Origin: Nitrosopumilus maritimus SCM1
GTDB taxonomy: Archaea > Thermoproteota > Nitrososphaeria > Nitrososphaerales > Nitrosopumilaceae
NCBI RefSeq assembly: GCF_000018465.1
Contig: NC_010085.1
Location: 840,001-872,000, forward strand
DNA length: 32,000 bases
Reading direction: 5' to 3'
The notes below the pieces were generated by a model. The model made no database searches. It was not told where the DNA came from and saw only the letters and a list, made by a program, of their open reading frames with translations. Each line of letters starts with the position of its first letter. Position 1 is the first letter of the stretch. Below are positions 3,027-17,327 of the stretch, one piece after another. The position numbers and the translations under genes are program-made.

Positions 3027-4268
3027 TTACCAGCTGTTTGCGTATTTTACTTGCTCTGGAGTAAGTTTGTCAATCTTTACATCCATTGCCTTTAGTGCAT
3101 CAACTGCAACTTGAGTATCAATCTCTTCAGGTACATTGATGATTTTGTTTTCCATCTTTTTGTGGTTCTTGAGAATATACATGACAGATAGTATTTGATT
3201 TGAAAATGATTGAGCCATTACTTCTGGGGGGTGACCTTCTGCTGCAACCAAGTTTGCAAGACGTCCTTGACCAATTAGATAGACCTTCTTTCCATTTTTG
3301 AGTACACATTCATCAAGTGCAGGTCTTACTTCTTTGACTGATTTTGATTTCTTTAGCAAAAATTCACTGTCAATTTCAACATCAAAGTGACCAACATTTC
3401 CCATGATTGCACCGTCTTTCATCTTTAGAATGTGTTCTTTTCTAATTACACTAGTCATTCCAGTACAAGTGATAAAGATGTCACCTAGCTTTGTTGCTTG
3501 TGCCATTGGCATTACTTCAAAGCCATCCATGTGAGCTTCAAGAGCTTTTACAGGATCAATTTCAGTTACAATTACTTTGGAACCCATTCCATGGCATCTT
3601 GCTGCAACACCACGTCCAACCCAACCATAACCTACAACTACAACACGTTTTGATGCCATAAGCAAATTCATTGCACGAAGATATCCATCTATTGTGCTTT
3701 GACCAGTACCGTATCTGTTATCAAACATGTGTTTTGTATATGCTTCATTTACCAAGATTACAGGATATCGTAATTTTCCCTGATTCTCAACTGCTCTAAT
3801 TCTAGTTACACCGGCTGTTGTCTCTTCAGTGGCACCCAAAATTTTCATGTTCTTGAATCGCTTATCAAAGTGAGCTTTGACATTCATGTCTGCACCATCA
3901 TCAGTGAGAATTGTTGGTTTGTGTTTTAGGACTTGATCAATACACCAATCATATTCTTTTACAGATTGGCCATGCCATGCATAAACATGAATTCCTTGTG
4001 ATGCCAAAAATGCTGCAATGTTATCTTGGGTAGTTAATGGATTTCCACCACAACATGCGACAGTTGCTCCAAGTTCTTTTGCACCCATTAGCAAGACAGA
4101 TGTCTCTTTTGTAATATGGAGACAGAATCCAAGGGTAACTCCTTTGAGAGGTTTTGATTTTTTTAATCGATTAATGGTATTATCTAAAATTTGCATATGA
4201 GATCTTGCCCATTCATAGGACAGTTTTCCTTCTTTGATCAGTTTTGCACTAGACTTTACTTTGCTCAC
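3027..4268 (-). CDS. ahcY: S-adenosyl-L-homocysteine hydrolase
   Basis: 413 aa, GTG start. NAD Rossmann segment VVVVGYGWVGRG and typical AHCY blocks (TTQDNIAAFLA, DDGADM, GRLANL). Confidence 0.95.
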   Translation of the reverse strand: MSKVKSSAKLIKEGKLSYEWARSHMQILDNTINRLKKSKPLKGVTLGFCLHITKETSVLLMGAKELGATVACCGGNPLTTQDNIAAFLASQGIHVYAWHGQSVKEYDWCIDQVLKHKPTILTDDGADMNVKAHFDKRFKNMKILGATEETTAGVTRIRAVENQGKLRYPVILVNEAYTKHMFDNRYGTGQSTIDGYLRAMNLLMASKRVVVVGYGWVGRGVAARCHGMGSKVIVTEIDPVKALEAHMDGFEVMPMAQATKLGDIFITCTGMTSVIRKEHILKMKDGAIMGNVGHFDVEIDSEFLLKKSKSVKEVRPALDECVLKNGKKVYLIGQGRLANLVAAEGHPPEVMAQSFSNQILSVMYILKNHKKMENKIINVPEEIDTQVAVDALKAMDVKIDKLTPEQVKYANSW

Positions 4269-6885: not shown

Positions 6886-7200
6886 TTAAGGGTTAACCAT
6901 TGTTAATTTTGCCTCAATTCTGTCATAGTATCCATTTTGGTCCATAGCAGGAACATAAAATGTTGCAGAAACTACATCTCCAACACCTGCACCACAATCT
7001 GCTACAACAACAGAGTGACCTAAAACAGACTCACCAACACAGCCATAATCAGTAACAGCAATGACCGATACATCTTCAGTAACTAGTGTTGGAACTATAT
7101 TCCAAGGAGTTAATGTGAAAACTAGTATTACTGAAGTTGCTGCAGCCAAAATTACCATGAACTTTAGCCGAGGTGTTTTTGTTTGTGTGGTTTGTTGCAT
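6886..7200 (-). CDS. small secreted or membrane-anchored protein, unknown function
   Basis: 104 aa with an N-terminal hydrophobic helix (LKFMVILAAATSVILVFTL). TATA-like TTATATTTT about 30 nt upstream, and a TTGGCACTAG box further upstream. Confidence 0.5.
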   Translation of the reverse strand: MQQTTQTKTPRLKFMVILAAATSVILVFTLTPWNIVPTLVTEDVSVIAVTDYGCVGESVLGHSVVVADCGAGVGDVVSATFYVPAMDQNGYYDRIEAKLTMVNP

Positions 7201-7256
7201 TTCTCCTCAATAGAAATTACATTTTACAAAATATAACCAAGAGGAAACTTTTTGCT

Positions 7257-7266
7257 CTAGTGCCAA
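7257..7266 (-). promoter_or_regulatory. near-consensus TTGGCACTAG box upstream of gene 6886..7200
   Basis: 9/10 match. About 20 nt upstream of TTATATTTT, which lies about 30 nt before the ATG at 7200. Confidence 0.35.
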
Positions 7267-7270
7267 TTAT

Positions 7271-7600
7271 TCAAATTTTACAATCACAACCTTTCTTTTT
7301 TAAAATTTGAATTTGTCTTGATGGAGAGTCAACAAAAGTATCCTGTTTAGAATTACCAGTTGCTTTTCTCTTATCCAGTGGGCTCTGGTGAGAATACCCC
7401 CTACGAGTCATCTCAGAAACCAATTCTTCATGCCTAGAATAGAGAGCTTTTAGTTTTCCTTTCCAACGTACAGTCTCAGGATGCAAGGAATATCCCTTCT
7501 TACCCTCAGTGATTACTGCCCACATGGCATGAAGTTCCCTATGTTCACCTAGCAAATGGTTTCTGCATAATTTCTTTGGAGGGATATCCCAGATTCTCAT
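7271..7600 (-). CDS. pyrimidine-dimer DNA glycosylase family protein (T4 endonuclease V-like, Pyr_excise)
   Basis: 109 aa. The N-terminus MRIWDIPPKKLCRNHLLGEHRELHAMW, the KGYSLHPE block and the RRGY block resemble the short bacterial/archaeal Pyr_excise family and T4 DenV (HLMAEYRELPRV). Recalled from memory, not searched. Confidence 0.6.
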   Translation of the reverse strand: MRIWDIPPKKLCRNHLLGEHRELHAMWAVITEGKKGYSLHPETVRWKGKLKALYSRHEELVSEMTRRGYSHQSPLDKRKATGNSKQDTFVDSPSRQIQILKKKGCDCKI

Positions 7601-7705
7601 TTTCTTTTTTCTCCAAACAATTCTAAATCAGTTAAAGATAAAACCAAAAATCTTTGCATAAAGAAAAAAAGATTTTTCAATATTTAAAAAAAATAAAATT
7701 TTGAA

Positions 7706-7716
7706 CTAGTGCTAAA
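7706..7716 (-). promoter_or_regulatory. single TTTAGCACTAG box in the A-tract-rich spacer upstream of the endoV-like gene
   Basis: The plus strand reads CTAGTGCTAAA. Read on the minus strand, AAAATTTTATTTTTTTTAAATAT follows. The ATG of 7271..7600 is about 105 nt further on, so the target assignment is uncertain. Confidence 0.4.
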
Positions 7717-7834
7717 AAAAATAAAAAAAGCTTTAGCTAATTTTAAAAAAAATACGCACAAAAAAATTAGTTTAGTCTAATTAGGATCATCTAATTTTCA
7801 CGGGGTTTAATAGAATTGAAAACTAAATCAATCT

Positions 7835-8116
7835 ATGAATGCATGGAATAAATTTTGGAAATGGTATGAAAATAAAATACTTGGAAGTATAATTGTAATT
7901 GCAGTTATTCAATTTATTCAAGTTCCTCACATGGTATGGAATGCAGACCTAATGTTAGAAGCAGGGCTTGTTTCAAGAGTCCATCCAGTAATTGATTGGT
8001 TCTTGTATGGAGTAGACTTGATCGAGATTGTTTCAATTGTTAATGTTGGAATGATCATGTACAGCCTTCTCAAGAAAAGACAATCACAAAAAAGACTTGC
8101 TGCAAAAGCAGCATAA
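7835..8116 (+). CDS. small integral membrane protein, unknown function
   Basis: 93 aa with 2-3 hydrophobic helices and a basic tail. TTTAATAGAA box about 25 nt upstream of the ATG. Confidence 0.5.
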   Translation: MNAWNKFWKWYENKILGSIIVIAVIQFIQVPHMVWNADLMLEAGLVSRVHPVIDWFLYGVDLIEIVSIVNVGMIMYSLLKKRQSQKRLAAKAA

Positions 8117-8947
8117 CTATTCTTTTCCTTGCCAGATAACTCTTTGAGGAAATGGGATTTCTATTCCAGCCTCATCTAAAGCATTTTTTGCAATTTTGAG
8201 TAATTTTGGTTGAACTTCTCCCCAGTCTTCACGAGGATGCCAAACCAAGATTTCAATATTTACACTGCTGTCACCTAATTCACTAATACGAAATTCAGGA
8301 GCAGGTTCAACTAATACAAAAGGCATTGATTTTGCGATAGCCTTCTGAAGAACCAGAATTGCACCATCAATGTCTTCTTTGTATGCAATCCCCACTATTC
8401 CTTGGGAACGTCTTACAGGAGAAGAGGTAAGAGAGCGAAGGTTAGAGGTAAAGAATTTTTCATTAGGGATACGAATGATGGTCCCATCAAACTGTCTAAC
8501 ACGAACAGAGAATGTGCTGATATCTATCAAAGTACCAGAAATATTTTCAGCAGGAATTTCAACAGAATCTCCTTGTCTAACAGGTTTTTCAATCATCAAG
8601 AAAATTCCAGATATTAAATTAGAAACTACAGATTGTGTTGCAAATCCTATTACAACTCCAAATATACCTCCAGCTACAAGCATTCCAGAGAAATCAACAC
8701 CAGTAGTAGATACAAAAATTAGAAACGCAATAACGATTATTCCAAAATAAATTAATTTTCCAATATTGTTTGCACTGTCTTTAGAAAGCTTTGGAGCATA
8801 GTATTTTTTAAAAAAGAGTCTAACAGTTCTTGCAATAATCACACCGACAGCCATGATTATTCCACCAATCAAAAGACTAAGCAAGCTAAGAGTTTCAGTT
8901 ATCTCAATTTGGTTAAGTGAATCAAAAAACTCCATCAAATTAATCAA
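8117..8947 (-). CDS. small-conductance mechanosensitive channel (MscS family)
   Basis: 276 aa with three N-terminal TM helices. MscS pore/beta-domain block follows: ISGIFLMIEKPVRQGDSVEI...GTLIDISTFSVRVRQFDGTIIRIPNEKF. Confidence 0.85.
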   Translation of the reverse strand: MINLMEFFDSLNQIEITETLSLLSLLIGGIIMAVGVIIARTVRLFFKKYYAPKLSKDSANNIGKLIYFGIIVIAFLIFVSTTGVDFSGMLVAGGIFGVVIGFATQSVVSNLISGIFLMIEKPVRQGDSVEIPAENISGTLIDISTFSVRVRQFDGTIIRIPNEKFFTSNLRSLTSSPVRRSQGIVGIAYKEDIDGAILVLQKAIAKSMPFVLVEPAPEFRISELGDSSVNIEILVWHPREDWGEVQPKLLKIAKNALDEAGIEIPFPQRVIWQGKE

Positions 8948-9716
8948 CTCCCATCTCTGAATGTTTTACAGTTGAAGATATTTCATATGTTGTTGATTCT
9001 TGCCAATCAGTTTGAATTTTTTCTGCAGAAACATCAATCAGTTCTAAAGCCAATTTCTTTTTCAATACAGCAGTGGCATTATCAAATTTTGCTTTATTAT
9101 CTTTATAATATAATGAAAACGCAGTTGCACGAAAAACAACACGTCTTACAGAACGACCATCAGAAAGTTCATTTTTAATTGTAATTTGGATGGATGCGTT
9201 TTCATATGGATCAGAATCAATATCAGAAGATACTATAGGAGATTTTGAATACTTGCACAATACACCAGAATCAGGTGCACCATACAAGGCAAATCGAGAA
9301 TCATCCAGATTACAATCAAACCAATCAAGAGAATCCTTGGTAGAATCGTGAATTACAAATATACCGATTTCAATTTGACATAAAGCGTTTATGACTACAG
9401 AAGAACCACTTGGTAGAAAAACAGGGGTAGTAAAATCAAGATAAACATAATCAGTTCTCCTAGCAGGATAGTTTAATGGTCTAATGGGACAAATTTCAAC
9501 CTGAATTGTTCCAGATGGTGAAGGGATGTTTTTTTCAACAATTTTTTCAGTCAGATCATTTTTTTGATACAAAAATGCGTTTTCTGAAAGTTTTTTAAAT
9601 TTTATTTCGGTACCGGGAAAATTAAATTCAACATCATCAGTGATAGTATAGATTCCATAATTCAAAAAATTTTGTTCTTGATCAGAACTCATATCAAAAC
9701 ATGGAATTTCACACAT
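8940..9716 (-). CDS. conserved hypothetical protein, translationally coupled to the MscS gene
   Basis: 258-aa ORF with coding-like composition and no competing ORF. Its stop overlaps the MscS start by 8 nt. I do not recognise a domain with confidence. Confidence 0.55.
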   Translation of the reverse strand: MCEIPCFDMSSDQEQNFLNYGIYTITDDVEFNFPGTEIKFKKLSENAFLYQKNDLTEKIVEKNIPSPSGTIQVEICPIRPLNYPARRTDYVYLDFTTPVFLPSGSSVVINALCQIEIGIFVIHDSTKDSLDWFDCNLDDSRFALYGAPDSGVLCKYSKSPIVSSDIDSDPYENASIQITIKNELSDGRSVRRVVFRATAFSLYYKDNKAKFDNATAVLKKKLALELIDVSAEKIQTDWQESTTYEISSTVKHSEMGVD

Positions 9717-9753
9717 TTATACTTGACAAGAAGAAAAAATAAGAAAGTGGGCA

Positions 9754-10653
9754 TTACTCCAAGTTTAGAGGAATACTTGCACTACCAAAGTCTTCTGCGA
9801 TTCTAAAGACATAATCTTTTGAAGAATCATATTCAAATTCGGTTCCACCATATCCAATATTTGGACCAAAGAGTATGTTAAACTCTCTTGCATCACCTGG
9901 ATTTAGCACAATTTGTCCACTGGTAAAGTCCATGCCAGAGTACTTGTAGGCCTTTGAGCCATCCCATACATCATATGCACATATTTGAGGACTAGTACAA
10001 TTTAGAGCGGCAATTTCAGAACTGGTGTTCTCAGCAAGCATTCTAACAGACAATAGAGGTTGTCCTGTAGCAGTAATCTCAAACTCATTTCCTTCAGAAC
10101 CGACTCCAGTCCAATAATATGTGATTGGTCCCAAGTCGAATTTTTGAGCTCCAGATTTGTATTCATGTACTTTGATTGCTTGTTTGAGTGGTTTTTCACA
10201 ATCTAGTCTTTTGTAGGCTTTGGTAATTTCAGAACATTGTTCAAGTTCAGCTTCTAATGATGCTAATTTTGAATCAGTGTTTTTTGGTTCATCAGACATT
10301 ATTGGTTGTTCTGATGTTAATGAAACAGAAAGTAATCCAAATTGAATCAAATGCTGTACACCGTTAACAAATTCACCATCAGAGATTGTTCCATCTGCCC
10401 ACCATCCTGCATTGTTCTTAACCCAAGCTGGGACACTATCGGCAGTTTCAGAAGATACAGTAGTGGTAGGAACTGTAATTATTCCATCAGAAATCAAAAA
10501 AGCAATTCCTGTGAGAAATTCAGATTCAGATATGACTCCTTCTGCCCACCATCCTGCATTGTTCTTAACCCAGCCTGGTACTTCAGCATATGCAGAAGAT
10601 ACAGTTGTTGCAACCAGTAAAATTGCAGCGATTGCAGTTATTGCGGTTTTCAT
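9754..10653 (-). CDS. secreted protein with two WW repeat modules (VPxWVKNNAGWWAxGxISxxEF...) and a Cys-containing C-terminal domain
   Basis: 299 aa. Signal peptide MKTAITAIAAILLVATTVSSAYA. Internal 49-aa (147-nt) duplication. Tandem TTTAGCACTAG boxes plus a TATA box lie directly upstream. Confidence 0.75.
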   Translation of the reverse strand: MKTAITAIAAILLVATTVSSAYAEVPGWVKNNAGWWAEGVISESEFLTGIAFLISDGIITVPTTTVSSETADSVPAWVKNNAGWWADGTISDGEFVNGVQHLIQFGLLSVSLTSEQPIMSDEPKNTDSKLASLEAELEQCSEITKAYKRLDCEKPLKQAIKVHEYKSGAQKFDLGPITYYWTGVGSEGNEFEITATGQPLLSVRMLAENTSSEIAALNCTSPQICAYDVWDGSKAYKYSGMDFTSGQIVLNPGDAREFNILFGPNIGYGGTEFEYDSSKDYVFRIAEDFGSASIPLNLE

Positions 10654-10674
10654 TAATGCATTTTTGTGCTCATT

Positions 10675-10713
10675 GTATATAAGCTAGTGCTAAAGAATTT
10701 GACTAGTGCTAAA
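10675..10713 (-). promoter_or_regulatory. tandem 11-bp boxes (19-bp period) abutting the TATA box of gene 9754..10653
   Basis: Minus-strand reading: TTTAGCACTAG (10713-10703), 8 nt, TTTAGCACTAG (10694-10684), C, TTATATAC (10682-10675). ATG at 10653. Confidence 0.7.
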
Positions 10714-10737
10714 TTTTTGAATTAACAGCCACTGAAA

Positions 10738-10748
10738 CTAGTGGTAAT
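10738..10748 (-). promoter_or_regulatory. third, degenerate box ATTACCACTAG between the divergent 9754..10653 and DUF1722 promoters
   Basis: The plus strand reads CTAGTGGTAAT. It lies 24 nt upstream of the tandem pair and about 20 nt from the DUF1722 TATA box (10769-10776). Confidence 0.5.
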
Positions 10749-10816
10749 TACATTTCTAATTGTTCTTCTTTATATGCAAACAGAATCGATCTTCAAAAGT
10801 GAATAAAAAACAAGAA

Positions 10817-11326
10817 ATGACAGGCACATCAAGATTATCAGAACACGATATCAAAGAATACGTGCTAGAAAGATTCAAAGAGGTAAAAAAAGAGAAAATA
10901 AAAAATCTTGTTTCATTTCAATCTATGAACAAATACATGATTATGGCACATAATCAAGATGAATTACAAATTTTAGGAAATATTGTTGCCGGTTACAAAA
11001 AAATTTCATTGTTAGATATAATGACAGAATATGAAAAACATCTAAAGATGGCATTAGAAAAACCGCCAACCATTAAATCACATTCTAACGTAATAATGCA
11101 TATTTTTGGGTATTTTTCAAAAAATTTCAGTCAATTAGAAAAAGAACAATTTTTCAAATTACTAAATGAGTTCAAAGGAGAAGAAATCACAATTGGAAAA
11201 ATTCTATCAGAAATAAATCCAATCATTTATCGATTCAACAACACATATCTTGCAAATCAGACATATTTTCTACTATATTCAGATCCTCAACCAGGAAATT
11301 TGTTTCACATGTTGTCTCAAAAATAA
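10817..11326 (+). CDS. DUF1722 (YbgA-like) domain protein
   Basis: Blocks NVIMHIFGYFSKNFSQLEKEQFFKLLNEFKGEEITIGKILSEINPIIYRFNNTYLANQTYF match my memory of the YbgA/DUF1722 pattern. I place the start at ATG 10817 because the TTTATATG box at 10769-10776 lies inside the track ORF (10760). Confidence 0.65.
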   Translation: MTGTSRLSEHDIKEYVLERFKEVKKEKIKNLVSFQSMNKYMIMAHNQDELQILGNIVAGYKKISLLDIMTEYEKHLKMALEKPPTIKSHSNVIMHIFGYFSKNFSQLEKEQFFKLLNEFKGEEITIGKILSEINPIIYRFNNTYLANQTYFLLYSDPQPGNLFHMLSQK

Positions 11327-11327
11327 A

Positions 11328-12485
11328 TCAGAAAAAGTCTGACAAAGTTTTTTGTCTCATTAGTTTGGAGATATTTCCATGTGCAAGCCATTCAGACTTG
11401 CTAATGCTTAGTTTCTCGGATGCCAAATTCAATGCATGATCAAAATTATTTGCAATTACTGGGGTTTGTTTCATTGCTTCTCTAATTCCTTCACGAACCT
11501 GCCAGACGCCTACAGGTATTGCATATTCAGGTCGGATTTCTCTTAAAATTACGGCTCCAGATTGAATCTTTTTTGCACTGAGATACTCTAAAACACCTAA
11601 TTTGGCAGCAAAATACGCACCAGCTATGGCAGGAGGATGGTCAATACCCCGGGCATCCTCAAAATCAGAGCCAAACCCTAGAATTCCATTAGAATACCAT
11701 GCCTCAACCATTTCGTATATCCATCTATGAGGGAACAAAACCACAGAGAAATGATTTCCCAAATGAGAATATGAGAAGACCTTACAAGAGTCAATTAGGG
11801 CATAATCTAATACTTCGTCAGCAAGAGATTGTGATATAATGTCATCAGTTGCAGTAATACTCCATTTTGTTGGAACGAGTTTTCTTTTTTGGCCAAGCAT
11901 TCCAATGCTAAAGCATTTTTGAATTTTTGAAATATCAATTCCAGAATTGTATAAGTTCATGACAGCATCCTGTGCCTTCAAATCTTTATCATAGTATGTC
12001 TTTTCAATAGACTTTACAGAAGAGGTTCCAGAGAATTTTGCAGATTTGATTTCCCCAACAGGACCAAATGGAGCACTTTCTCCATCAAGGGAAATGTTTG
12101 AAGATACAGATTTTTGAAATATTAAATCAGAATCAGTTGGTTTTGAAGACATTGTTACTTCTTGGAGATTTTCAATGTATCGTCCATCAGTTTTATCGAT
12201 AGATAGTTTTTGTGTGCCACGAACTAAATTCAATCTAAAGTTTACAATTTCTTCTAAAGACTTTCCCTTCCATTTTTCAGGACTGTCAAGTAAACTTGTA
12301 TCTCCATGAATTGGTGGAACCATTGGACCAACAAAGACCTTAGGATAATTGTACGACCCAACAAATACAGATGGAGGACTAGTACCACTTATTGAATCAG
12401 ATGAAAACAAATTTCCATATTTTGATAATGTCTCATGCCATTTTGTTAAAATTGAACGGCGAATATCCTGAGAGTCAGAAGACAT
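11328..12485 (-). CDS. nreA: archaeal Nre-family DNA repair protein with C-terminal PIP box
   Basis: 385 aa. Nre_N-like block GTSPPSVFVGSYNYPKVFVGPMVPP. The C-terminus ends QKTLSDFF, a canonical QxxLxxFF PCNA-interacting motif. Confidence 0.7.
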   Translation of the reverse strand: MSSDSQDIRRSILTKWHETLSKYGNLFSSDSISGTSPPSVFVGSYNYPKVFVGPMVPPIHGDTSLLDSPEKWKGKSLEEIVNFRLNLVRGTQKLSIDKTDGRYIENLQEVTMSSKPTDSDLIFQKSVSSNISLDGESAPFGPVGEIKSAKFSGTSSVKSIEKTYYDKDLKAQDAVMNLYNSGIDISKIQKCFSIGMLGQKRKLVPTKWSITATDDIISQSLADEVLDYALIDSCKVFSYSHLGNHFSVVLFPHRWIYEMVEAWYSNGILGFGSDFEDARGIDHPPAIAGAYFAAKLGVLEYLSAKKIQSGAVILREIRPEYAIPVGVWQVREGIREAMKQTPVIANNFDHALNLASEKLSISKSEWLAHGNISKLMRQKTLSDFF

Positions 12486-12579
12486 TGAAATTAATGCTAG
12501 ATTTGTGCCTAATAACTTGACTAATTATCGAAGTTGACGAGAGGTAAACACTTGTTATTACCAAATATACAGAATCATC

Positions 12580-13506
12580 ATGACAGTAAATAGAATAGTC
12601 TCATTCTTACCTAGTGCAACAGAATTACTATACGAGTTTGGAGTTCAAAACAAAGTATACGGAGTCACACATGAATGCAAGTACCCTAGTGAGGCAATTT
12701 CTAAACCACAGGTAATTAGTTCAGTAATAGACTCTGAGAAATTATCAAGTAATGAAATCAATACACAAACATGTCAACTACTCAATGAAGGAAAAGATAT
12801 TTTCATTTTAAATGAAAAAAATCTAAAAGATGCCAATCCAGATCTTATAATTTCTCAAGAAACATGTGAGGTATGTGCAGCATATACTAATCAAGTAAAC
12901 AAAGCACTCCAAATTCTTGAGAGAAAACCAATAATTCATTCAATGGATCCTCACAACATATCAGAAATCATAGAGTCAGTTATCAAATTAGGAAAAATTT
13001 TAGAAGAAGAAAGTAAAGCAAAAGAGATTTCAGAGTCATTAGAAAAAAGAATTCAAAAAATAAAAAATAAAGTTCATACCAACATACCAAAAATTCTAGC
13101 AATCGAATGGATAGAGCCATTTTTTACAGCTGGTCATTGGGTTCCAGAAATGATAGAAATTGCTGGTGGAAAAAACACGATAAGCAAAACAGGAGAACAT
13201 TCAAGACGTATGGACTTTGAAGAAATATCAAATTCTGATGCAGACATTATAATTCTCATGCCATGTGGATTTGACACAAAACGTACAGTTTCAGAATACA
13301 AAGACATTCTAGAAAGAGATGAGAAATGGAACATGCTCAAGGCAGTGCAAAATCAGGCAGTTTTTGCAGTGGATGCCAATTCTTTTTTCAGCAAGCCCAG
13401 CATCAGAACAGTTGAGGGAATAGAGATACTTGCAAAAATAATCCATCCAGAAACATTTGATGATGTTAATGTTTCAGAAAATTCTTTTGCAAATGTTTAC
13501 CAATAA
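12580..13506 (+). CDS. BtuF-like (Peripla_BP_2) cobalamin/iron-chelate binding protein lacking a signal peptide
   Basis: 308 aa. It starts directly with the mature-domain pattern RIVSFLPSATELLYEFG...VYGVTHEC, followed by DLIISQ and FFTAGHWVPEMIEIAGG blocks typical of class III binding proteins. No hydrophobic leader and no adjacent permease or ATPase. Confidence 0.7.
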   Translation: MTVNRIVSFLPSATELLYEFGVQNKVYGVTHECKYPSEAISKPQVISSVIDSEKLSSNEINTQTCQLLNEGKDIFILNEKNLKDANPDLIISQETCEVCAAYTNQVNKALQILERKPIIHSMDPHNISEIIESVIKLGKILEEESKAKEISESLEKRIQKIKNKVHTNIPKILAIEWIEPFFTAGHWVPEMIEIAGGKNTISKTGEHSRRMDFEEISNSDADIIILMPCGFDTKRTVSEYKDILERDEKWNMLKAVQNQAVFAVDANSFFSKPSIRTVEGIEILAKIIHPETFDDVNVSENSFANVYQ

Positions 13507-13512
13507 ATTTCA

Positions 13513-14892
13513 TCATAGGGGTTTACCCTTGTACTGATAATCAATTACTTTGTGGAACAAGTTATGAGATGCAATAACAGTTAATGCAACTATGAATATT
13601 CCAATAAAATTCCTTATTGTCATTAATTCATTTGGAGTAGTTGCTATCAATGAATTTTCAAAAATAACATAGTAATTGTCAAACAACCAGAACACCAAAG
13701 TAATCCAGGATAATACACCTGCTATCAAATAACCTAAACGGGTTTTGTTGTGAATTAGTATTATTGCAAATCCAATAGCAATATACCAAAAGGCAGAACC
13801 AATTAACCACATAGGTTCATAGACATCAGTTCTATCATCTAGCCAATAATAACTTGAACCAATAATAGCTAATGCAAATAGAGAAACTTGAATTAATTTT
13901 TGATTGATTTTAAACCCTGTTTTCTCCTCTTTTTGTTCCATTTGCGGAGGATCAGATTTCATTTCTTTTGTTGCGATATCAATTGCTTCACGAACGGATT
14001 TTAGATGCATAGGAATGATTTTTGTTATAGAATCGTCGGCGACAACAGTATCATGAACCAAGCTATCAATCAGAGGCCTTGCAAGTGATGCCTTTACAGG
14101 AGTGATAAGATCAACCCAATACGAAGATAGTCTAGTGGTTAGAAATGGGATTTGAATGACAAACAGATTTTTGTTCAGATATGCTGAATACACACGCATT
14201 AATTCCTCATAAGTCATTTTATCAGGACCTCCAATCTCAAAAATTTTACCCATTGTTTCAGGTTTTGATAGAGATTCAGCAAGATAACTAATCACATCAT
14301 CAACTGCAATTGGTTGGGCCAATGACTTGACCCACGAAGGACATACCATCACACTCAATCTTTCAACAAGATAACGAAGCATAGCATAAGAACCACTTTT
14401 TGCACCAATAATTATAGAAGCTCTAAATTCTGTAACAGGAATATTTCCAGATGCAAGAATTTCCCCTACTTCTTTCCTACTACGCATATGAGGTGAGAGA
14501 CCAAGACTATCATTAACTAAACCACCAAGGTAAATAATTCGTTTTACACCAGATTCTGTGGCAGCTTTGAGAAAGTTTTGAGCTTGATTATTTTCTCGTG
14601 TAGCAAATTCTTGCCAATCACCTTTATCACCTTCCATAGAGTGAAGTAAATAATATGCAGTATCAATACCAAACATTGCATTTTTTAATTCATCAAAGTT
14701 GAATGCATCTGCTTTAACATATTTTACTTTATCATTACCAGATAATTGTTTTCTACTCAGACCCTTTACAGTGTAACCTGAAGAAACAAGAGATGAAATT
14801 AATCTTGAGCCAATAAATCCCGTTGCACCAGTAACCAAGATTGAAAATGGTTTGTAATCAGAAGATTTAGATGATGAAATCACTTGTTTCAT
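13513..14892 (-). CDS. NAD(P)-binding NmrA/atypical-SDR-like domain fused to a C-terminal four-helix membrane domain
   Basis: 459 aa. Rossmann motif ILVTGATGFIGSRL. The C-terminal ~130 aa contain four hydrophobic helices. Tandem box pair plus TATA directly upstream. Confidence 0.75.
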   Translation of the reverse strand: MKQVISSSKSSDYKPFSILVTGATGFIGSRLISSLVSSGYTVKGLSRKQLSGNDKVKYVKADAFNFDELKNAMFGIDTAYYLLHSMEGDKGDWQEFATRENNQAQNFLKAATESGVKRIIYLGGLVNDSLGLSPHMRSRKEVGEILASGNIPVTEFRASIIIGAKSGSYAMLRYLVERLSVMVCPSWVKSLAQPIAVDDVISYLAESLSKPETMGKIFEIGGPDKMTYEELMRVYSAYLNKNLFVIQIPFLTTRLSSYWVDLITPVKASLARPLIDSLVHDTVVADDSITKIIPMHLKSVREAIDIATKEMKSDPPQMEQKEEKTGFKINQKLIQVSLFALAIIGSSYYWLDDRTDVYEPMWLIGSAFWYIAIGFAIILIHNKTRLGYLIAGVLSWITLVFWLFDNYYVIFENSLIATTPNELMTIRNFIGIFIVALTVIASHNLFHKVIDYQYKGKPL

Positions 14893-14944
14893 TTTTTATG
14901 GCACCTACGAAATATTTTACACATGGTGGGTTTTTCTTTTCAAA

Positions 14945-14983
14945 TTATTTAAACTAGTGATAATCAATTTAACTAGTGGTAAA
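14945..14983 (-). promoter_or_regulatory. tandem 11-bp boxes (19-bp period) abutting the TATA box of gene 13513..14892
   Basis: Minus-strand reading: TTTACCACTAG (14983-14973), 8 nt, ATTATCACTAG (14964-14954), then immediately TTTAAATAA (14953-14945). Confidence 0.65.
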
Positions 14984-15044
14984 ATAGCAGTTTTTGTGAC
15001 TAATTTAGGAATAAACATTTGTAAAATGGATAAGAAAGCAGTAA

Positions 15045-15082
15045 TTTAGCACTAGAAAAAGAGGTTAGCATTAGTTATATAA
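15045..15082 (+). promoter_or_regulatory. tandem 11-bp boxes (19-bp period) abutting the TATA box of the B12-binding protein gene
   Basis: TTTAGCACTAG (15045-15055), 8 nt, GTTAGCATTAG (15064-15074), then immediately TTATATAA (15075-15082). ATG at 15102, a spacing consistent with a leaderless mRNA. Confidence 0.7.
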
Positions 15083-15101
15083 CATACCACTAAAGAAAAT
15101 C

Positions 15102-15944
15102 ATGGTCTACATACGAGCAAAAAAGGTAAAATCAGACCAATATCTGTATCTAGTCAAAAGTGTATGGGACTCAAAAAAGAGCACATCAAAACAAGAAATT
15201 GTCAAATATCTTGGAAAGGCATCGGAAGTTGTAAAAGATGACATTCCAATAGATTATAGAAATGATCCCAAAGTATTATCAGTTTTAGCATCTTACAATC
15301 CAAAAGATATCAAGAAAAGAGAAGACGCAACAAAGAAATCAAAACAACAACTATACAAGAAACTAACTGAAGGGAGTATTCAAGATTGTGTAAAAATTTA
15401 TGAAGAATATATTAAAATTTTTAATGCATCCGATTTCTTTGATAGAATTCTAAAACCCACAATGTATAGAATTGGTGATGAATGGTCCATAGGTAAAATC
15501 AGCATAGCCACAGAACATGTTGCAAGCAATGTTGCTCAAACACTTGTAAAAATAATAATGGACCAAGTATCATCTGGTGGAAATAAAAAGAAAATTCTCA
15601 TATGTGTTCCATTAGGAGAAGAACATCATTTAGGATGCGATGTATTAGAAACATATCTATCAATTAAAGGATTCAAAATTTTTAATATGGGAACATCAAT
15701 GCCAACAGAATCAATTCTTAGTTTCATTGACAACAATAAACCAGATGTTGTGTTGGTATCAATCACATTAGAAGACAACCTAGCAGCAGGGCAGAGATTA
15801 GTCAAAAAAATAAGTGACCATACAAACATTCCCATACTAGTTGGTGGCTATGCACTTCAAGCAAAGAAAATTCCCAAATTTACAGGCCAGATAATTCCAG
15901 ATTGCGGTCTTGAGGAAGTTCCTAAAATTTTAAGAAAGATTTAA
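15102..15944 (+). CDS. CarH/LitR-like coenzyme-B12-binding photoreceptor-type protein with a non-MerR basic N-terminal domain (candidate transcription regulator)
   Basis: 280 aa. W128-x9-E138-H139 (GDEWSIGKISIATEHVAS), then E173-x-H175-x-x-G178, x41, S220-I-T222, x25, G248-G249. The N-terminal 45 aa are basic (MVYIRAKKVKSDQYLYLVKSVW...KYLGK). TATA TTATATAA starts 27 nt before the ATG. Confidence 0.8.
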   Translation: MVYIRAKKVKSDQYLYLVKSVWDSKKSTSKQEIVKYLGKASEVVKDDIPIDYRNDPKVLSVLASYNPKDIKKREDATKKSKQQLYKKLTEGSIQDCVKIYEEYIKIFNASDFFDRILKPTMYRIGDEWSIGKISIATEHVASNVAQTLVKIIMDQVSSGGNKKKILICVPLGEEHHLGCDVLETYLSIKGFKIFNMGTSMPTESILSFIDNNKPDVVLVSITLEDNLAAGQRLVKKISDHTNIPILVGGYALQAKKIPKFTGQIIPDCGLEEVPKILRKI

Positions 15945-16003
15945 GTTTATTTTAAAACTGCATAGTGGTAAATTAAATCAACTTTTATTAAAATTAGTCA
16001 TAA

Positions 16004-16014
16004 ATTAGCACTAG
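16004..16014 (+). promoter_or_regulatory. single ATTAGCACTAG box upstream of an AT-rich box, in the spacer before the TFB cassette
   Basis: Exact TTAGCACTAG 10-mer, followed by TTATTAAAATAAA about 15 nt downstream. Confidence 0.5.
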
Positions 16015-16203
16015 AATCCAATTTTTTTGTTATTAAAATAAAACAAAAACAAAAGAAAAGTAGAGTATAAAATGGAATCAACATATGCAGTAATTGCAGA
16101 TACAAAAAAAGAATTACTCAAAATGATATCTAAAAAAGAATGTGAACAAACGTTTGCTCTAATTGTAACCACATCGTGATATTATTTACAATAAAAGAAT
16201 AAA

Positions 16204-16214
16204 ATTAGCACTAG
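16204..16214 (+). promoter_or_regulatory. single ATTAGCACTAG box upstream of the zinc-ribbon mini-ORF/TFB operon
   Basis: Exact 10-mer, exactly 200 bp after the copy at 16004. Followed by AAAAAATATTTT and CTTAAATAAT boxes, with the ATG at 16262. Confidence 0.55.
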
Positions 16215-16261
16215 AAAAAATATTTTCTTTCTCTTAAATAATTTCAAAACAAAATTAATTC

Positions 16262-16414
16262 ATGAAACAAGAATTGATTCAGGAAAATAAAAATGAATTA
16301 AAAATCAAAAATAAGAATGTAAAAATTTGTATCAATTGTGGAAATTCAAAAGTTGATTCACATGAATATGGAATTTCATGTGAAGATTGTGGTATTCTTT
16401 TGTGGAGAGAATAA
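16262..16414 (+). CDS. stand-alone zinc-ribbon mini-protein (50 aa), TFB-ribbon-like
   Basis: Own translation: MKQELIQENKNELKIKNKNVKICINCGNSKVDSHEYGISCEDCGILLWRE, with CxxC-x13-CxxC. The stop lies 1 nt before the TFB ATG at 16416. CTTAAATAAT box about 25 nt upstream. Below the ORF-track length cutoff. Confidence 0.45.
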   Translation: MKQELIQENKNELKIKNKNVKICINCGNSKVDSHEYGISCEDCGILLWRE

Positions 16415-16415
16415 A

Positions 16416-17327
16416 ATGATTACAGAACTTGTACATCAAAAGAGTTGTAAAAAAAACAAGATTGTAACTGATCTGAATACAGGAGAGATTGCATGCACGA
16501 ATTGCGGTGCAGTACTCTCTGAAAGAGTAGTTGACAGTGGTCCAGAAAGTCTAGGGATGACTGGAGAAGAATATCAAACCAACAGTAGAGTTGGAAGAAA
16601 AATTTCATTAAAAATGATAGACATGGGATTATCAACCATTATTGAGGCTAAAGACAAAGATGCAACAGGAAAAGGGCTATCAAATGAGAACAAGAGAATG
16701 TTTTATCGCCTAAGAATGTGGGATAGAAATAGTCGTTCTGCAAGTACCGCCAAATCATTTCAAAAGGCATTCACCATGCTTGATGGAATCAGTGCTAAAC
16801 TAGGACTTCCAGAGCCAGTAATAGAACAAACTGCATATCTATTTAGAAAAATTGCTGCAAAAAAGATTCTTGCAGGAAGATCTACAGCAGGGATTCTTTG
16901 TGCAGCAATTTACATCACATGCAGAATGACAAATACACCAAGAACTTTACAAGATGTGGCAAATGCTGGAAATGTAAATAAAAAAAACATTCAAAGAACA
17001 TACAGATTTCTTGCAAGAGAATTAGACATTACACCAGAAATTTATCATCCAACAGAATTTGTAACACGAATTGCAAAGGCAGTAGACATCTCTGAGAAAA
17101 CAGAAAGATTGGCATTTAGAATTTTAGATCTTTCTGCAAGAAACGGAGTATTAGAAAGTAAAAATCCAATGGCAATGGCTGCTGCTGCAACATATCTCGC
17201 ATCAGTAAAAAACGATGAAAGAATTTCTCAGTTAAAAATTTCCAAAGTCTCTGGCATTAGTGCAGTTACAATCAGAGATAGAACAAAAGAAATTTTGAAA
17301 AAGATAGGAGGTGAAATTAATGGGTAG
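16416..17327 (+). CDS. tfb: transcription initiation factor B paralog with a degenerate N-terminal zinc ribbon
   Basis: Two cyclin-like repeats (RSTAGILCAAIYITCR, NPMAMAAAATYLA). The ribbon reads SCKKNK...CTNCG, so the first knuckle is CxxN rather than CxxC. GPESL replaces the usual GPEWR. I prefer ATG 16416 to the track start 16338, which overlaps the mini-ORF in another frame. Confidence 0.9.
   Translation: MITELVHQKSCKKNKIVTDLNTGEIACTNCGAVLSERVVDSGPESLGMTGEEYQTNSRVGRKISLKMIDMGLSTIIEAKDKDATGKGLSNENKRMFYRLRMWDRNSRSASTAKSFQKAFTMLDGISAKLGLPEPVIEQTAYLFRKIAAKKILAGRSTAGILCAAIYITCRMTNTPRTLQDVANAGNVNKKNIQRTYRFLARELDITPEIYHPTEFVTRIAKAVDISEKTERLAFRILDLSARNGVLESKNPMAMAAAATYLASVKNDERISQLKISKVSGISAVTIRDRTKEILKKIGGEING
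17307..17313 (+). promoter_or_regulatory. Shine-Dalgarno-like GGAGGTG, 6 nt upstream of ATG 17320
   Basis: GGAGGTG lies inside the 3' end of the TFB gene. This suggests coupled translation of the downstream Cys-rich ORF. Confidence 0.5.

Follow-up and report, generated by a model that had tools for sequence, protein, structure and literature searches.

We focus here on a 10-bp element, the box TTAGCACTAG with core GCACTAG, which recurs in a window of 32,000 nucleotides from Nitrosopumilus maritimus SCM1 (positions 840,001 to 872,000 of contig NC_010085.1), and on a candidate regulator gene in the same window (15102..15944, +), which encodes a 280-aa B12-binding protein recognised by Pfam and NCBIfam models. 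The box is very likely the operator of this protein family. We also favour, with rather less assurance, a fuller reading in which the box is the operator half-site of the 15102 protein, an autoregulated, CarH-like, light-released repressor that would occlude the TFB-recognition element (BRE) and the TATA box. Binding of the box by the 15102 protein, repression and light as the signal are what we infer from the comparisons set out below. As judged from sequence and structural models, this archaeal family would join a CarH-type adenosylcobalamin (AdoCbl) light-sensing module to a basic three-stranded β-sheet, a putative DNA-binding domain.

Box copies, promoter geometry and the extent of the proposed regulon

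The window is AT-rich (G+C 34%), and its sequence is that of a Nitrosopumilus-like ammonia-oxidizing archaeon (AOA). Exact copies of TTAGCACTAG lie at 7706(−), 10684(−), 10703(−), 15046(+), 16005(+) and 16205(+), six in all against 0.04 expected, and none of 100 shuffles gave six. The initial annotation had placed these six copies in intergenic DNA, which is borne out, and indeed all box copies in the window lie between open reading frames (ORFs). Its list of near-copies is right for 7257, 10738, 14954 and 14973, each with one mismatch, whereas the copy given as 15064 starts at 15065, also with one mismatch, and that at 15962 has two mismatches. Two single boxes do precede the TFB cassette, but their starts are 16005 and 16205 rather than 16004 and 16204; in all three shifted positions a preceding T had been counted. 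A near-match at 4243 (TTTGCACTAG) was rejected, as it scores under the threshold of the position weight matrix (PWM) and has no TATA at the right offset; it is probably a chance occurrence. An explanation by structured RNA or tRNA was likewise rejected, there being no Rfam or tRNA match anywhere in the window.

Three promoters in the window are double-boxed, and a readout of all three confirms the proposal that they share one geometry, which in gene orientation is box-N9-box-(0–1 nt)-TATA with a period of 19 bp (3/3), the proximal box occupying the BRE position directly against TATA. At the promoter of the B12-regulator gene, the distal box TTAGCACTAG (15046..15055, +, exact match) is followed by the proximal box TTAGCATTAG (15065..15074, +, one mismatch), which abuts the TATA box TTATATAA (15075..15082, +), and the ATG at 15102 lies 27 nt after the start of TATA, an arrangement of the leaderless type. 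Divergent from it is the promoter of a gene encoding an NmrA/short-chain dehydrogenase/reductase (SDR)-type NAD-binding domain with a C-terminal membrane region (13513..14892, −), with distal box TTACCACTAG (14973..14982, −, one mismatch) and proximal box TTATCACTAG (14954..14963, −, one mismatch), the latter abutting TATA TTTAAATA (14946-14953). The third promoter belongs to the gene for a secreted 299-aa protein (9754..10653, −); here the distal box (10703..10712, −) is an exact match, the proximal box (10684..10693, −) stands 1 nt (c) before TATA TTATATAC (10675-10682), and the ATG at 10653 follows 29 nt after the start of TATA.

Other targets have a single box. Those assigned to the gene for a small secreted protein and, tentatively, to the endoV-like gene are both confirmed, each with a TATA-like element downstream: an exact box at 7706..7715 (−) ends 19 nt before TAAATATT (7679-7686), upstream of the pyrimidine dimer DNA glycosylase gene (T4 endoV / Pyr_excise; 7271..7600, −; Pfam Pyr_excise 5.7e-28), and TTGGCACTAG at 7257..7266 (−, one mismatch) ends 20 nt before TTATATTT (7229-7236), upstream of a gene for a 104-aa membrane/secreted protein (6886-7200, −). 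On the other strand, an exact box at 16005..16014 (+) ends 19 nt before TAAAATAA (16034-16041) and precedes a 35-aa ORF (16072-16179) whose ortholog is boxed in nine loci, and a further exact box at 16205..16214 (+) ends 19 nt before TTAAATAA (16234-16241). Downstream of the latter lies a 50-aa ORF (16262-16414, +) with a CxxC...CxxC zinc ribbon that resembles the TFB N-terminus; it ends 1 nt before the ATG of the TFB paralog (16416..17327, +; true start 16416), a protein of 303 aa with a Zn ribbon and two TFIIB cyclin repeats. The small ORF is conserved and boxed in 21 loci, and the TFB paralog is boxed directly in 32. A point absent from the initial annotation is that the four single boxes (7257, 7706, 16005 and 16205) each end 19–20 nt before their TATA-like element, which is the register of the distal box in the pairs. 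The distal position is thus common to every boxed promoter in the window, and the BRE-position box is an optional addition. The distance of exactly 200 bp between the boxes at 16005 and 16205, to which attention had been drawn, is not conserved (429 bp in L001) and looks incidental; nor is it a duplication or otherwise a meaningful distance, since the two promoters share only the common architecture, with 72% identity over 53 nt.

These features were followed across 80 Nitrosopumilaceae loci, one genome per species, plus a few others (83 loci, 1.32 Mb), with a PWM scan at a threshold of 11. Conservation in orthologous promoters is clear, in that the promoter of the B12 gene has the form box-N9-box-TTAwATA in 81/83 loci, with the ATG about 25 nt later. 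At this promoter the boxes hold 1.3–1.7 bits/position and TTAwATA 1.5–1.8, the spacer 0.2–0.5, and the proximal box reads CATTAG or CACCAG in nearly all relatives. The scan returned 929 sites vs 114 under a Markov null, 85% of them intergenic, though intergenic DNA accounts for only about 20%. Neighbours on the same strand are most often 19 bp (136 cases) or 18 bp (47) apart. The proximal box ends 0–1 nt before TATA in 176 of the 185 pairs, and a box ends 18–20 nt before TATA at the distal position of 174 of these pairs as well as in 232 singles; a BRE-position box is present in 185 of about 417 boxed promoters. TATA and ATG are 25–29 nt apart in 274/393 boxed promoters, as expected for leaderless archaeal transcripts. 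The polarity of the box relative to TATA is fixed within AOA, and unboxed promoters show zero information at the box positions. Opposite-strand pairs form a sharp peak over the 83 loci, with the minus box 43 bp left of the plus box in 33 cases, which indicates a conserved back-to-back divergent promoter pair in the island.

The box is concentrated around the B12 gene. Its density is 3.4/kb directly upstream of this gene and 0.14/kb at ±10 kb, where the null is 0.087, and the share of genes with an oriented box is 49% within 2.5 kb and 6% at 7.5–10 kb, with 0/58 beyond. By family, the promoters that are boxed are those of the B12 gene (77/84), the secreted 299-aa protein (66/71, with a double box in 59), the 104-aa membrane protein (23/23), a 61-aa protein (17/18), an amine oxidase (45/57), a 120-aa protein (37/42), TFB (37/89, there being two TFB genes per locus of which only the island one is boxed) and the SDR-membrane protein (27/63, a lower bound because the start-codon calls are crude). 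The gene for the secreted 299-aa protein is the most consistently double-boxed target and has two copies in some loci (72 promoters in 63 loci). In the related loci, eleven families of neighbouring genes are boxless throughout, among them those for photolyase, DUF1722, NreA, a BtuF-like protein, MscS, DUF432, a GTPase, CysRS, BirA and a CoA-binding protein; the initial annotation's remark that housekeeping promoters lack the box holds for BirA, with CysRS and the GTPase likewise boxless. A metagenome scan for box-N18-20-TTAWATA (at least 120 contigs) led back to the same few gene families among the promoter-like matches listed. Given this density, which is near background at 10 kb, the restriction to few families and the metagenome matches, the box is, over the loci scanned, a specific element of a small regulon and not a generic promoter element.

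The B12-binding protein and the co-occurrence of box and family

In the 15102 protein, Pfam B12-binding_2 and B12-binding match residues 82-251, and the best NCBIfam model is CarH, which covers residues 78-257 only. CarH homologues have been defined by the motifs Wx9EH and ExHx2Gx41SxV/Tx22-27GG (PMC8156234), and both are found here, as W128-x9-E138-H139 and as the classic B12 motif E173xH175xxG178-x41-S220xT222-x25-G248G249. Four elements, GxxW, EH, GxxH and GxxxP, have been proposed as a SignatureFinder signature that separates light-responsive from enzymatic cobalamin domains (PMC11796333); the 15102 protein has all four (G125xxW128, E138H139, G172xxH175 and G197xxxP201). The W, the EH and the axial H do not vary among 32 diverse homologues; G197 of GxxxP is Ser in soil homologues. 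In an AlphaFold (AF2) model built on the same 32 homologues, with a predicted local distance difference test score (pLDDT) of 87, the predicted four-helix bundle and Rossmann domain superpose on TtCarH (E 3e-12, TM 0.83–0.86, root-mean-square deviation 2.6–2.9 Å; Foldseek). The best 50 Foldseek matches are all B12 photoreceptors, including photocobilins and CtMerR, and PDB entries rank in the same way by sequence as by fold, with photocobilins 8J2W/8J2X, CtMerR 8JBS and others at E about 1e-19. Names given to homologues in databases include 'methionine synthase', 'histidine kinase', 'response regulator' and 'MtbC1'.

Where CarH carries its DNA-binding domain, the 15102 protein has a different N-domain (residues 1-40), with 10 Lys/Arg and with R5, K7, K10, Y14, Y16, W22, Q31, K35 and Y36 invariant. 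It is predicted to form three antiparallel β-strands (residues 2-9, 12-23 and 28-39; pLDDT 92 when modelled alone). Neither Pfam nor NCBIfam matched a MerR or helix-turn-helix (HTH) domain on residues 1-80, and the N-domain has no Pfam model, no sequence relative in the PDB and no significant Foldseek match. Among 1.84 billion representatives, searched exhaustively, only 122 relatives of the N-domain were found, nearly all of them proteins of 280–310 aa with the same architecture. A few have the domain in another fusion, one of them with an HNH nuclease (P0211, 176 aa); a 155-aa HNH gene also lies about 3 kb from the regulator gene in L209 (9744-10211) and L213 (9110-9577).

Within the Nitrosopumilaceae, members of the family are 66–96% identical, the closest being that of a Nitrosopumilus metagenome-assembled genome locus (96%). 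The family also reaches soil Nitrososphaerales and, at 28–37% N-domain identity, Thermoplasmatota. The box arrangement before the homologue is kept in two of the three soil loci sampled, and at least five soil metagenome contigs have a double box at the head of an operon that contains a full-length family member. This operon encodes a 192-aa membrane protein, an SDR, the full-length family member, a 156-aa membrane protein and, as its last gene, Pyr_excise. An apparent paralogue without the DNA-binding domain in these operons is an artefact of ATG-only ORFs, for a TTG start gives the full N-domain; family members in L097, L101, L113, L124 and L192 start at TTG, and automated annotations may contain the same truncation of such members to a B12 protein without its putative DNA-binding domain.

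The Thermoplasmatota loci are GC-rich (58–73%), and there the homologue mostly stands downstream of a gene for an MMPL transporter, in many cases with an NmrA/SDR gene in the vicinity. At the promoters of these homologues the core GGCACTAG recurs as direct repeats at a period of 19–21 bp; by chance the 8-mer core would occur about 0.8 times in a 12-kb locus, both strands counted. In six independent loci, two direct repeats of CTAGTGCC(C)AA stand at the promoter of the homologue or of the MMPL operon. This sequence is the reverse complement of TTGGGCACTAG, so the boxes in these six loci are inverted relative to TATA, and four of the six also have a copy right after TATA that faces the other way. 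The promoter of L210 reads CGAGTGCCCAA-N9-CGAGTGCCGAA-ctc-TTTAATATG-cc-TCGGCACCAG and that of L211 reads CATAGTGCCCAA-N8-CATAGTGCCAGC-gtcg-TTATATAC-a-CTAGGCACCAG; L212 has a third copy before the start codon, its TATA being uncertain, and L216 has no third copy. The soil and Thermoplasmatota loci lack the other island genes, such as that for the TFB paralog and the Zn-ribbon ORFs. What is conserved across phyla is the core GCACTAG, the repeat period and the invariant residues of the N-domain, and not gene context, base composition or polarity relative to TATA, which ties the box to the protein family.

A proposed mechanism and its alternatives

By analogy with CarH, the AdoCbl-bound protein would oligomerise in the dark and the oligomer would set its DNA-binding domains on direct-repeat boxes 18–20 bp apart. 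One domain would sit on the box about 50–59 bp upstream of the start site and the next on the BRE position directly against TATA, so that assembly of TFB and the TATA-binding protein (TBP) would be blocked. Light would photolyse the cofactor, the oligomer would fall apart and the promoters would fire, again as in CarH. Two-box promoters, namely those of the regulator's own gene, the secreted 299-aa protein and the SDR-membrane protein, would be held tightly, and promoters with the distal box only more weakly; the fixed 19-nt offset of the single boxes would be explained if the BRE region still had to receive a second domain. The regulon would be a small island of about 8–10 promoters, comprising the pyrimidine-dimer glycosylase, a flavin adenine dinucleotide (FAD) amine-oxidase/SRPBCC operon in relatives, several small membrane proteins and the TFB paralog with its mini zinc-ribbon ORF, and the TFB paralog could relay the signal to a second tier of genes. 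Positions that flank TATA on both sides, as in Thermoplasmatota, or overlap the BRE, as in AOA, are typical of archaeal repressors.

The initial annotation had proposed an operator for an oligomeric CarH-like repressor, and the CarH signatures and fold, the double box at the gene's own promoter in 81/83 loci and the cross-phylum co-occurrence all speak for it. Details of the analogy do not hold. The protein shares with CarH/LitR (TtCarH, B. megaterium CarH and M. xanthus CarH) the light-sensing module of a four-helix bundle with Wx9EH and a Rossmann fold, the domain order of DNA-binding domain, flexible linker and cobalamin domain, an operator of direct repeats rather than palindromes that overlaps core promoter elements, and a likely link to photoprotection. 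CarH, on the other hand, binds with a MerR winged helix, in place of which the 15102 protein has its three-stranded β-sheet N-domain. It occludes −35/−10, for which BRE/TATA would be the equivalent in an archaeal host, and its operator consists of three or four contiguous 11-mers (nAnnTnnACAn), whereas here boxes of 10–11 bp recur at a period of 18–21 bp. The proposed regulon also has no recognisable carotenoid pathway. The 15102 protein is thus a CarH homologue by the two-motif definition, without the MerR domain and the 11-bp tandem operator of CarH/LitR.

The closest sequence relatives of its cobalamin module in the PDB are modular B12 photoreceptors, that is, the photocobilins 8J2W/8J2X, Chloracidobacterium CtMerR 8JBS and AerR. 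The light-responsive cobalamin domain has been described as a portable unit that is combined with a variety of output domains (PMC11796333). The outputs of these photoreceptors are bilin-binding, GGDEF or MerR HTH domains or none, and none of them is archaeal. Archaeal repressors that act over BRE/TATA or just downstream include MDR1, LrpA, Phr and those of the TrmB type. These resemble the proposed mechanism in the steric exclusion of TBP/TFB or RNA polymerase at TATA, and differ from it in having HTH/winged-helix domains and mostly palindromic sites and in that none is known to be light-controlled. Tfb3 of Sulfolobus, a UV-inducible TFB paralog, offers a parallel to the TFB paralog and zinc-ribbon-only mini ORF in a radiation-related regulon, and by this analogy suggests a two-tier cascade, although the paralog here has the full Zn ribbon and both cyclin repeats.

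Several observations weigh against a simple light-released repressor. Over half of the boxed promoters have the distal box only, at about −50 to −59, a position more usual for archaeal activators than for repressors, and in these single-box promoters the BRE-position sequence is almost unconserved. The period of 18–21 bp differs from the contiguous 11-bp repeats of the CarH operator, and the geometry of the oligomer thus cannot simply be copied from CarH. His132 of TtCarH, the upper ligand in the light state, is not conserved, the residue here being Ser129. No photolyase promoter is boxed, although of the island genes in relatives photolyase has the plainest connection with light, and one of the three soil loci (L088) is without a clear box. 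Finally, the scans covered loci around the B12 gene, and the regulon may have members far from the island.

It is possible, though we consider it unlikely, that the 15102 protein binds the boxes in another capacity, as an activator, as a dual regulator or as a reporter of cobalamin supply. It might activate from −50 to −59 by recruiting TFB/TBP, or repress double-box promoters and activate single-box ones. Single distal boxes do outnumber pairs (about 232 vs 185), their fixed distance of 19 nt to TATA would suit contact with the pre-initiation complex, and archaeal activators usually bind just upstream of the BRE. This is opposed by the BRE-occluding box at the regulator's own promoter in 81/83 loci and by the Thermoplasmatota promoters, where boxes bracket TATA on both sides, the arrangement of a repressor, which looks like repression by occlusion. 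A role in reporting cobalamin supply could draw on the fact that AOA produce cobalamin and on the BtuF-like gene of the island, whose product may be cytoplasmic; all four elements of a light-responsive cobalamin domain are nevertheless present, the targets include a UV-lesion glycosylase and the island adjoins a photolyase gene, all of which speaks for light.

Two further explanations place the reader of the box elsewhere. That some other transcription factor binds it, the B12-binding protein being a mere member of the regulon whose N-domain has another role, is in our view improbable. Its appeal lies in an N-domain that matches no recognisable DNA-binding fold, in the inferred status of binding by the 15102 protein and in the small zinc-ribbon proteins that the island encodes. 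The box, however, follows the protein family into soil Nitrososphaerales and GC-rich Thermoplasmatota without the other island genes, and this co-occurrence argues against an AOA-island-specific reader such as the TFB paralog or the Zn-ribbon ORFs. The sole other gene shared, the NmrA-type SDR, has no DNA-binding domain. Moreover, Arg, Lys, Tyr and Trp residues of the strongly basic N-domain are invariant, and so, to the same degree, is the box. Less probable still is the second proposal of the initial annotation, in which the TFB paralog (16416-17327) would read the box as an extended BRE or promoter-specificity element and the island would be an alternative-TFB regulon. The proximal box is exactly in the BRE position and most Nitrosopumilaceae have a TFB paralog in the island, but the position common to boxed promoters is 19 nt upstream of TATA and outside the BRE, and the BRE-position box is optional (185 of about 417), with nearly no conservation at that position where it is missing. 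Nor are direct repeats at a period of 18–21 bp a property of a BRE, and boxes also occur in loci without a nearby TFB gene. The inverted boxes of Thermoplasmatota, one of them downstream of TATA, argue strongly against any polarity-bearing element such as the BRE, and as the promoter of the TFB paralog is itself boxed, the paralog is a target and not a likely reader.

Other features of the island and significance

Further box-like sites accompany the main promoters. At the secreted-protein promoter, a third upstream box TTACCACTAG (10738..10747, −, one mismatch) lies 35 bp before the distal box; a third box is also found in L001 (5554) and L003 (7072), at a variable distance of 26–35 bp. The window copy forms one arm of a small inverted repeat, CCACT-N6-AGTGG; it is inverted in orientation and about 21 nt away from the TATA of the divergent, otherwise boxless DUF1722 gene. 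At the regulator promoter, ATACCACTAA (15084-15093, +) follows the proximal box at exactly 19 bp, downstream of TATA and ahead of the ATG, and would give three boxes in phase; the site is kept only in the closest relatives (L006, L007 and L009), and L030, L082 and L083 have a clear box after TATA instead. A third box downstream of TATA is, however, no general feature of AOA, as none of 185 double-box promoters reaches PWM 8 at that offset. A degenerate box, TTACCACTAT (15962..15971, −, two mismatches), is directed into the 3′ end of the regulator gene. In relatives a boxed amine-oxidase/SRPBCC/120-aa operon, absent from the window, comes directly after the regulator gene, as in L001, where TTAGCACTAT at 12227(−) precedes the amine-oxidase operon (10845-13044). 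The 15962 box is probably a relic of this operon's promoter; a possible alternative is that it is a source of antisense RNA.

The boxed TATA downstream of 7706 precedes, by 27 nt, a leaderless upstream ORF of 20 aa, MQRFLVLSLTDLELFGEKRK (7659-7597, −), whose stop codon TGA shares bases with the start codon of the pyrimidine-dimer glycosylase gene (ATGA), an overlap that suggests translational coupling of the two. The secreted 299-aa protein contains two internal 'WVKNNAGWWA' repeats, more fully two copies of 'VPxWVKNNAGWWAxGxISxxEF', and matched no Pfam or NCBIfam family. The linkage between the NmrA/SDR gene and the regulator gene is kept in soil AOA and Thermoplasmatota, and an NmrA/SDR-type gene is the only other gene common to the marine AOA, soil AOA and Thermoplasmatota contexts; examples are 13513-14892 (−) in the window, L086 8412-9434, L087 7726-9000, L097 6971-8398, L209 2112-3104 and L211 6896-7906. 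A partnership of the two proteins, for example in handling cobalamin after photolysis, is conceivable and purely speculative. Island neighbours without a box in the window are DUF1722, NreA, the BtuF-like gene, MscS and DUF432, and the island of relatives also holds a cyclobutane pyrimidine dimer (CPD) photolyase together with the amine-oxidase/SRPBCC operon. The periplasmic-binding-protein or BtuF-like gene (12580-13506, +) lies inside the island and is never boxed; its product starts MTVNRIVSFLPSATELLYEFG, with no obvious signal peptide by eye, and may be a cytoplasmic cobalamin-binding protein.

CarH homologues have been described 'across diverse bacterial taxa', with HTH, GGDEF, bilin-binding, GAF and MEDS domains as partners (PMC8156234, PMC11796333), and these reviews and surveys mention neither archaea nor the N-domain found here. 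Full-text literature searches found no report of the motif, of an archaeal CarH/LitR, of an archaeal B12 photoreceptor-regulator or of light-regulated expression of these genes (one apparent 'LitR' match was the word 'litre'), and no light sensor or light-responsive regulon of AOA is described in the literature searched. The novelty would thus lie in the DNA-binding domain to which a known sensor module is joined, in its occurrence in a further domain of life and in the architecture of the operator.

Ammonia-oxidizing archaea are among the most abundant microbes of the ocean and of soils, are major producers of cobalamin and are inhibited by light. Whether they, and some Thermoplasmatota, have a dedicated light-sensing transcription factor that switches a photoprotection and UV-repair island, and maybe a wider second tier through the TFB paralog, is a matter on which we are evenly divided. 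If so, this would be the first B12-based photoreceptor-regulator described in Archaea, with a new β-sheet DNA-binding fold, and by analogy it would extend B12 photobiology to the archaeal transcription machinery, in which BRE/TATA rather than σ70 elements would be occluded. The small putative DNA-binding domain, with a candidate target sequence at hand, could be of use in structural work and might serve as an optogenetic part orthogonal to MerR-type CarH. The analysis supplies a testable circuit, consisting of a protein family, a 10-bp candidate operator with a precise promoter geometry and a short list of targets, most of them of unknown function. If the reading is true, it would offer a molecular entry point to the light sensitivity for which marine nitrifiers have long been known, and tie the cobalamin production of AOA to light sensing; what gives the finding its interest is that it opens the light response of this globally important group to direct test.

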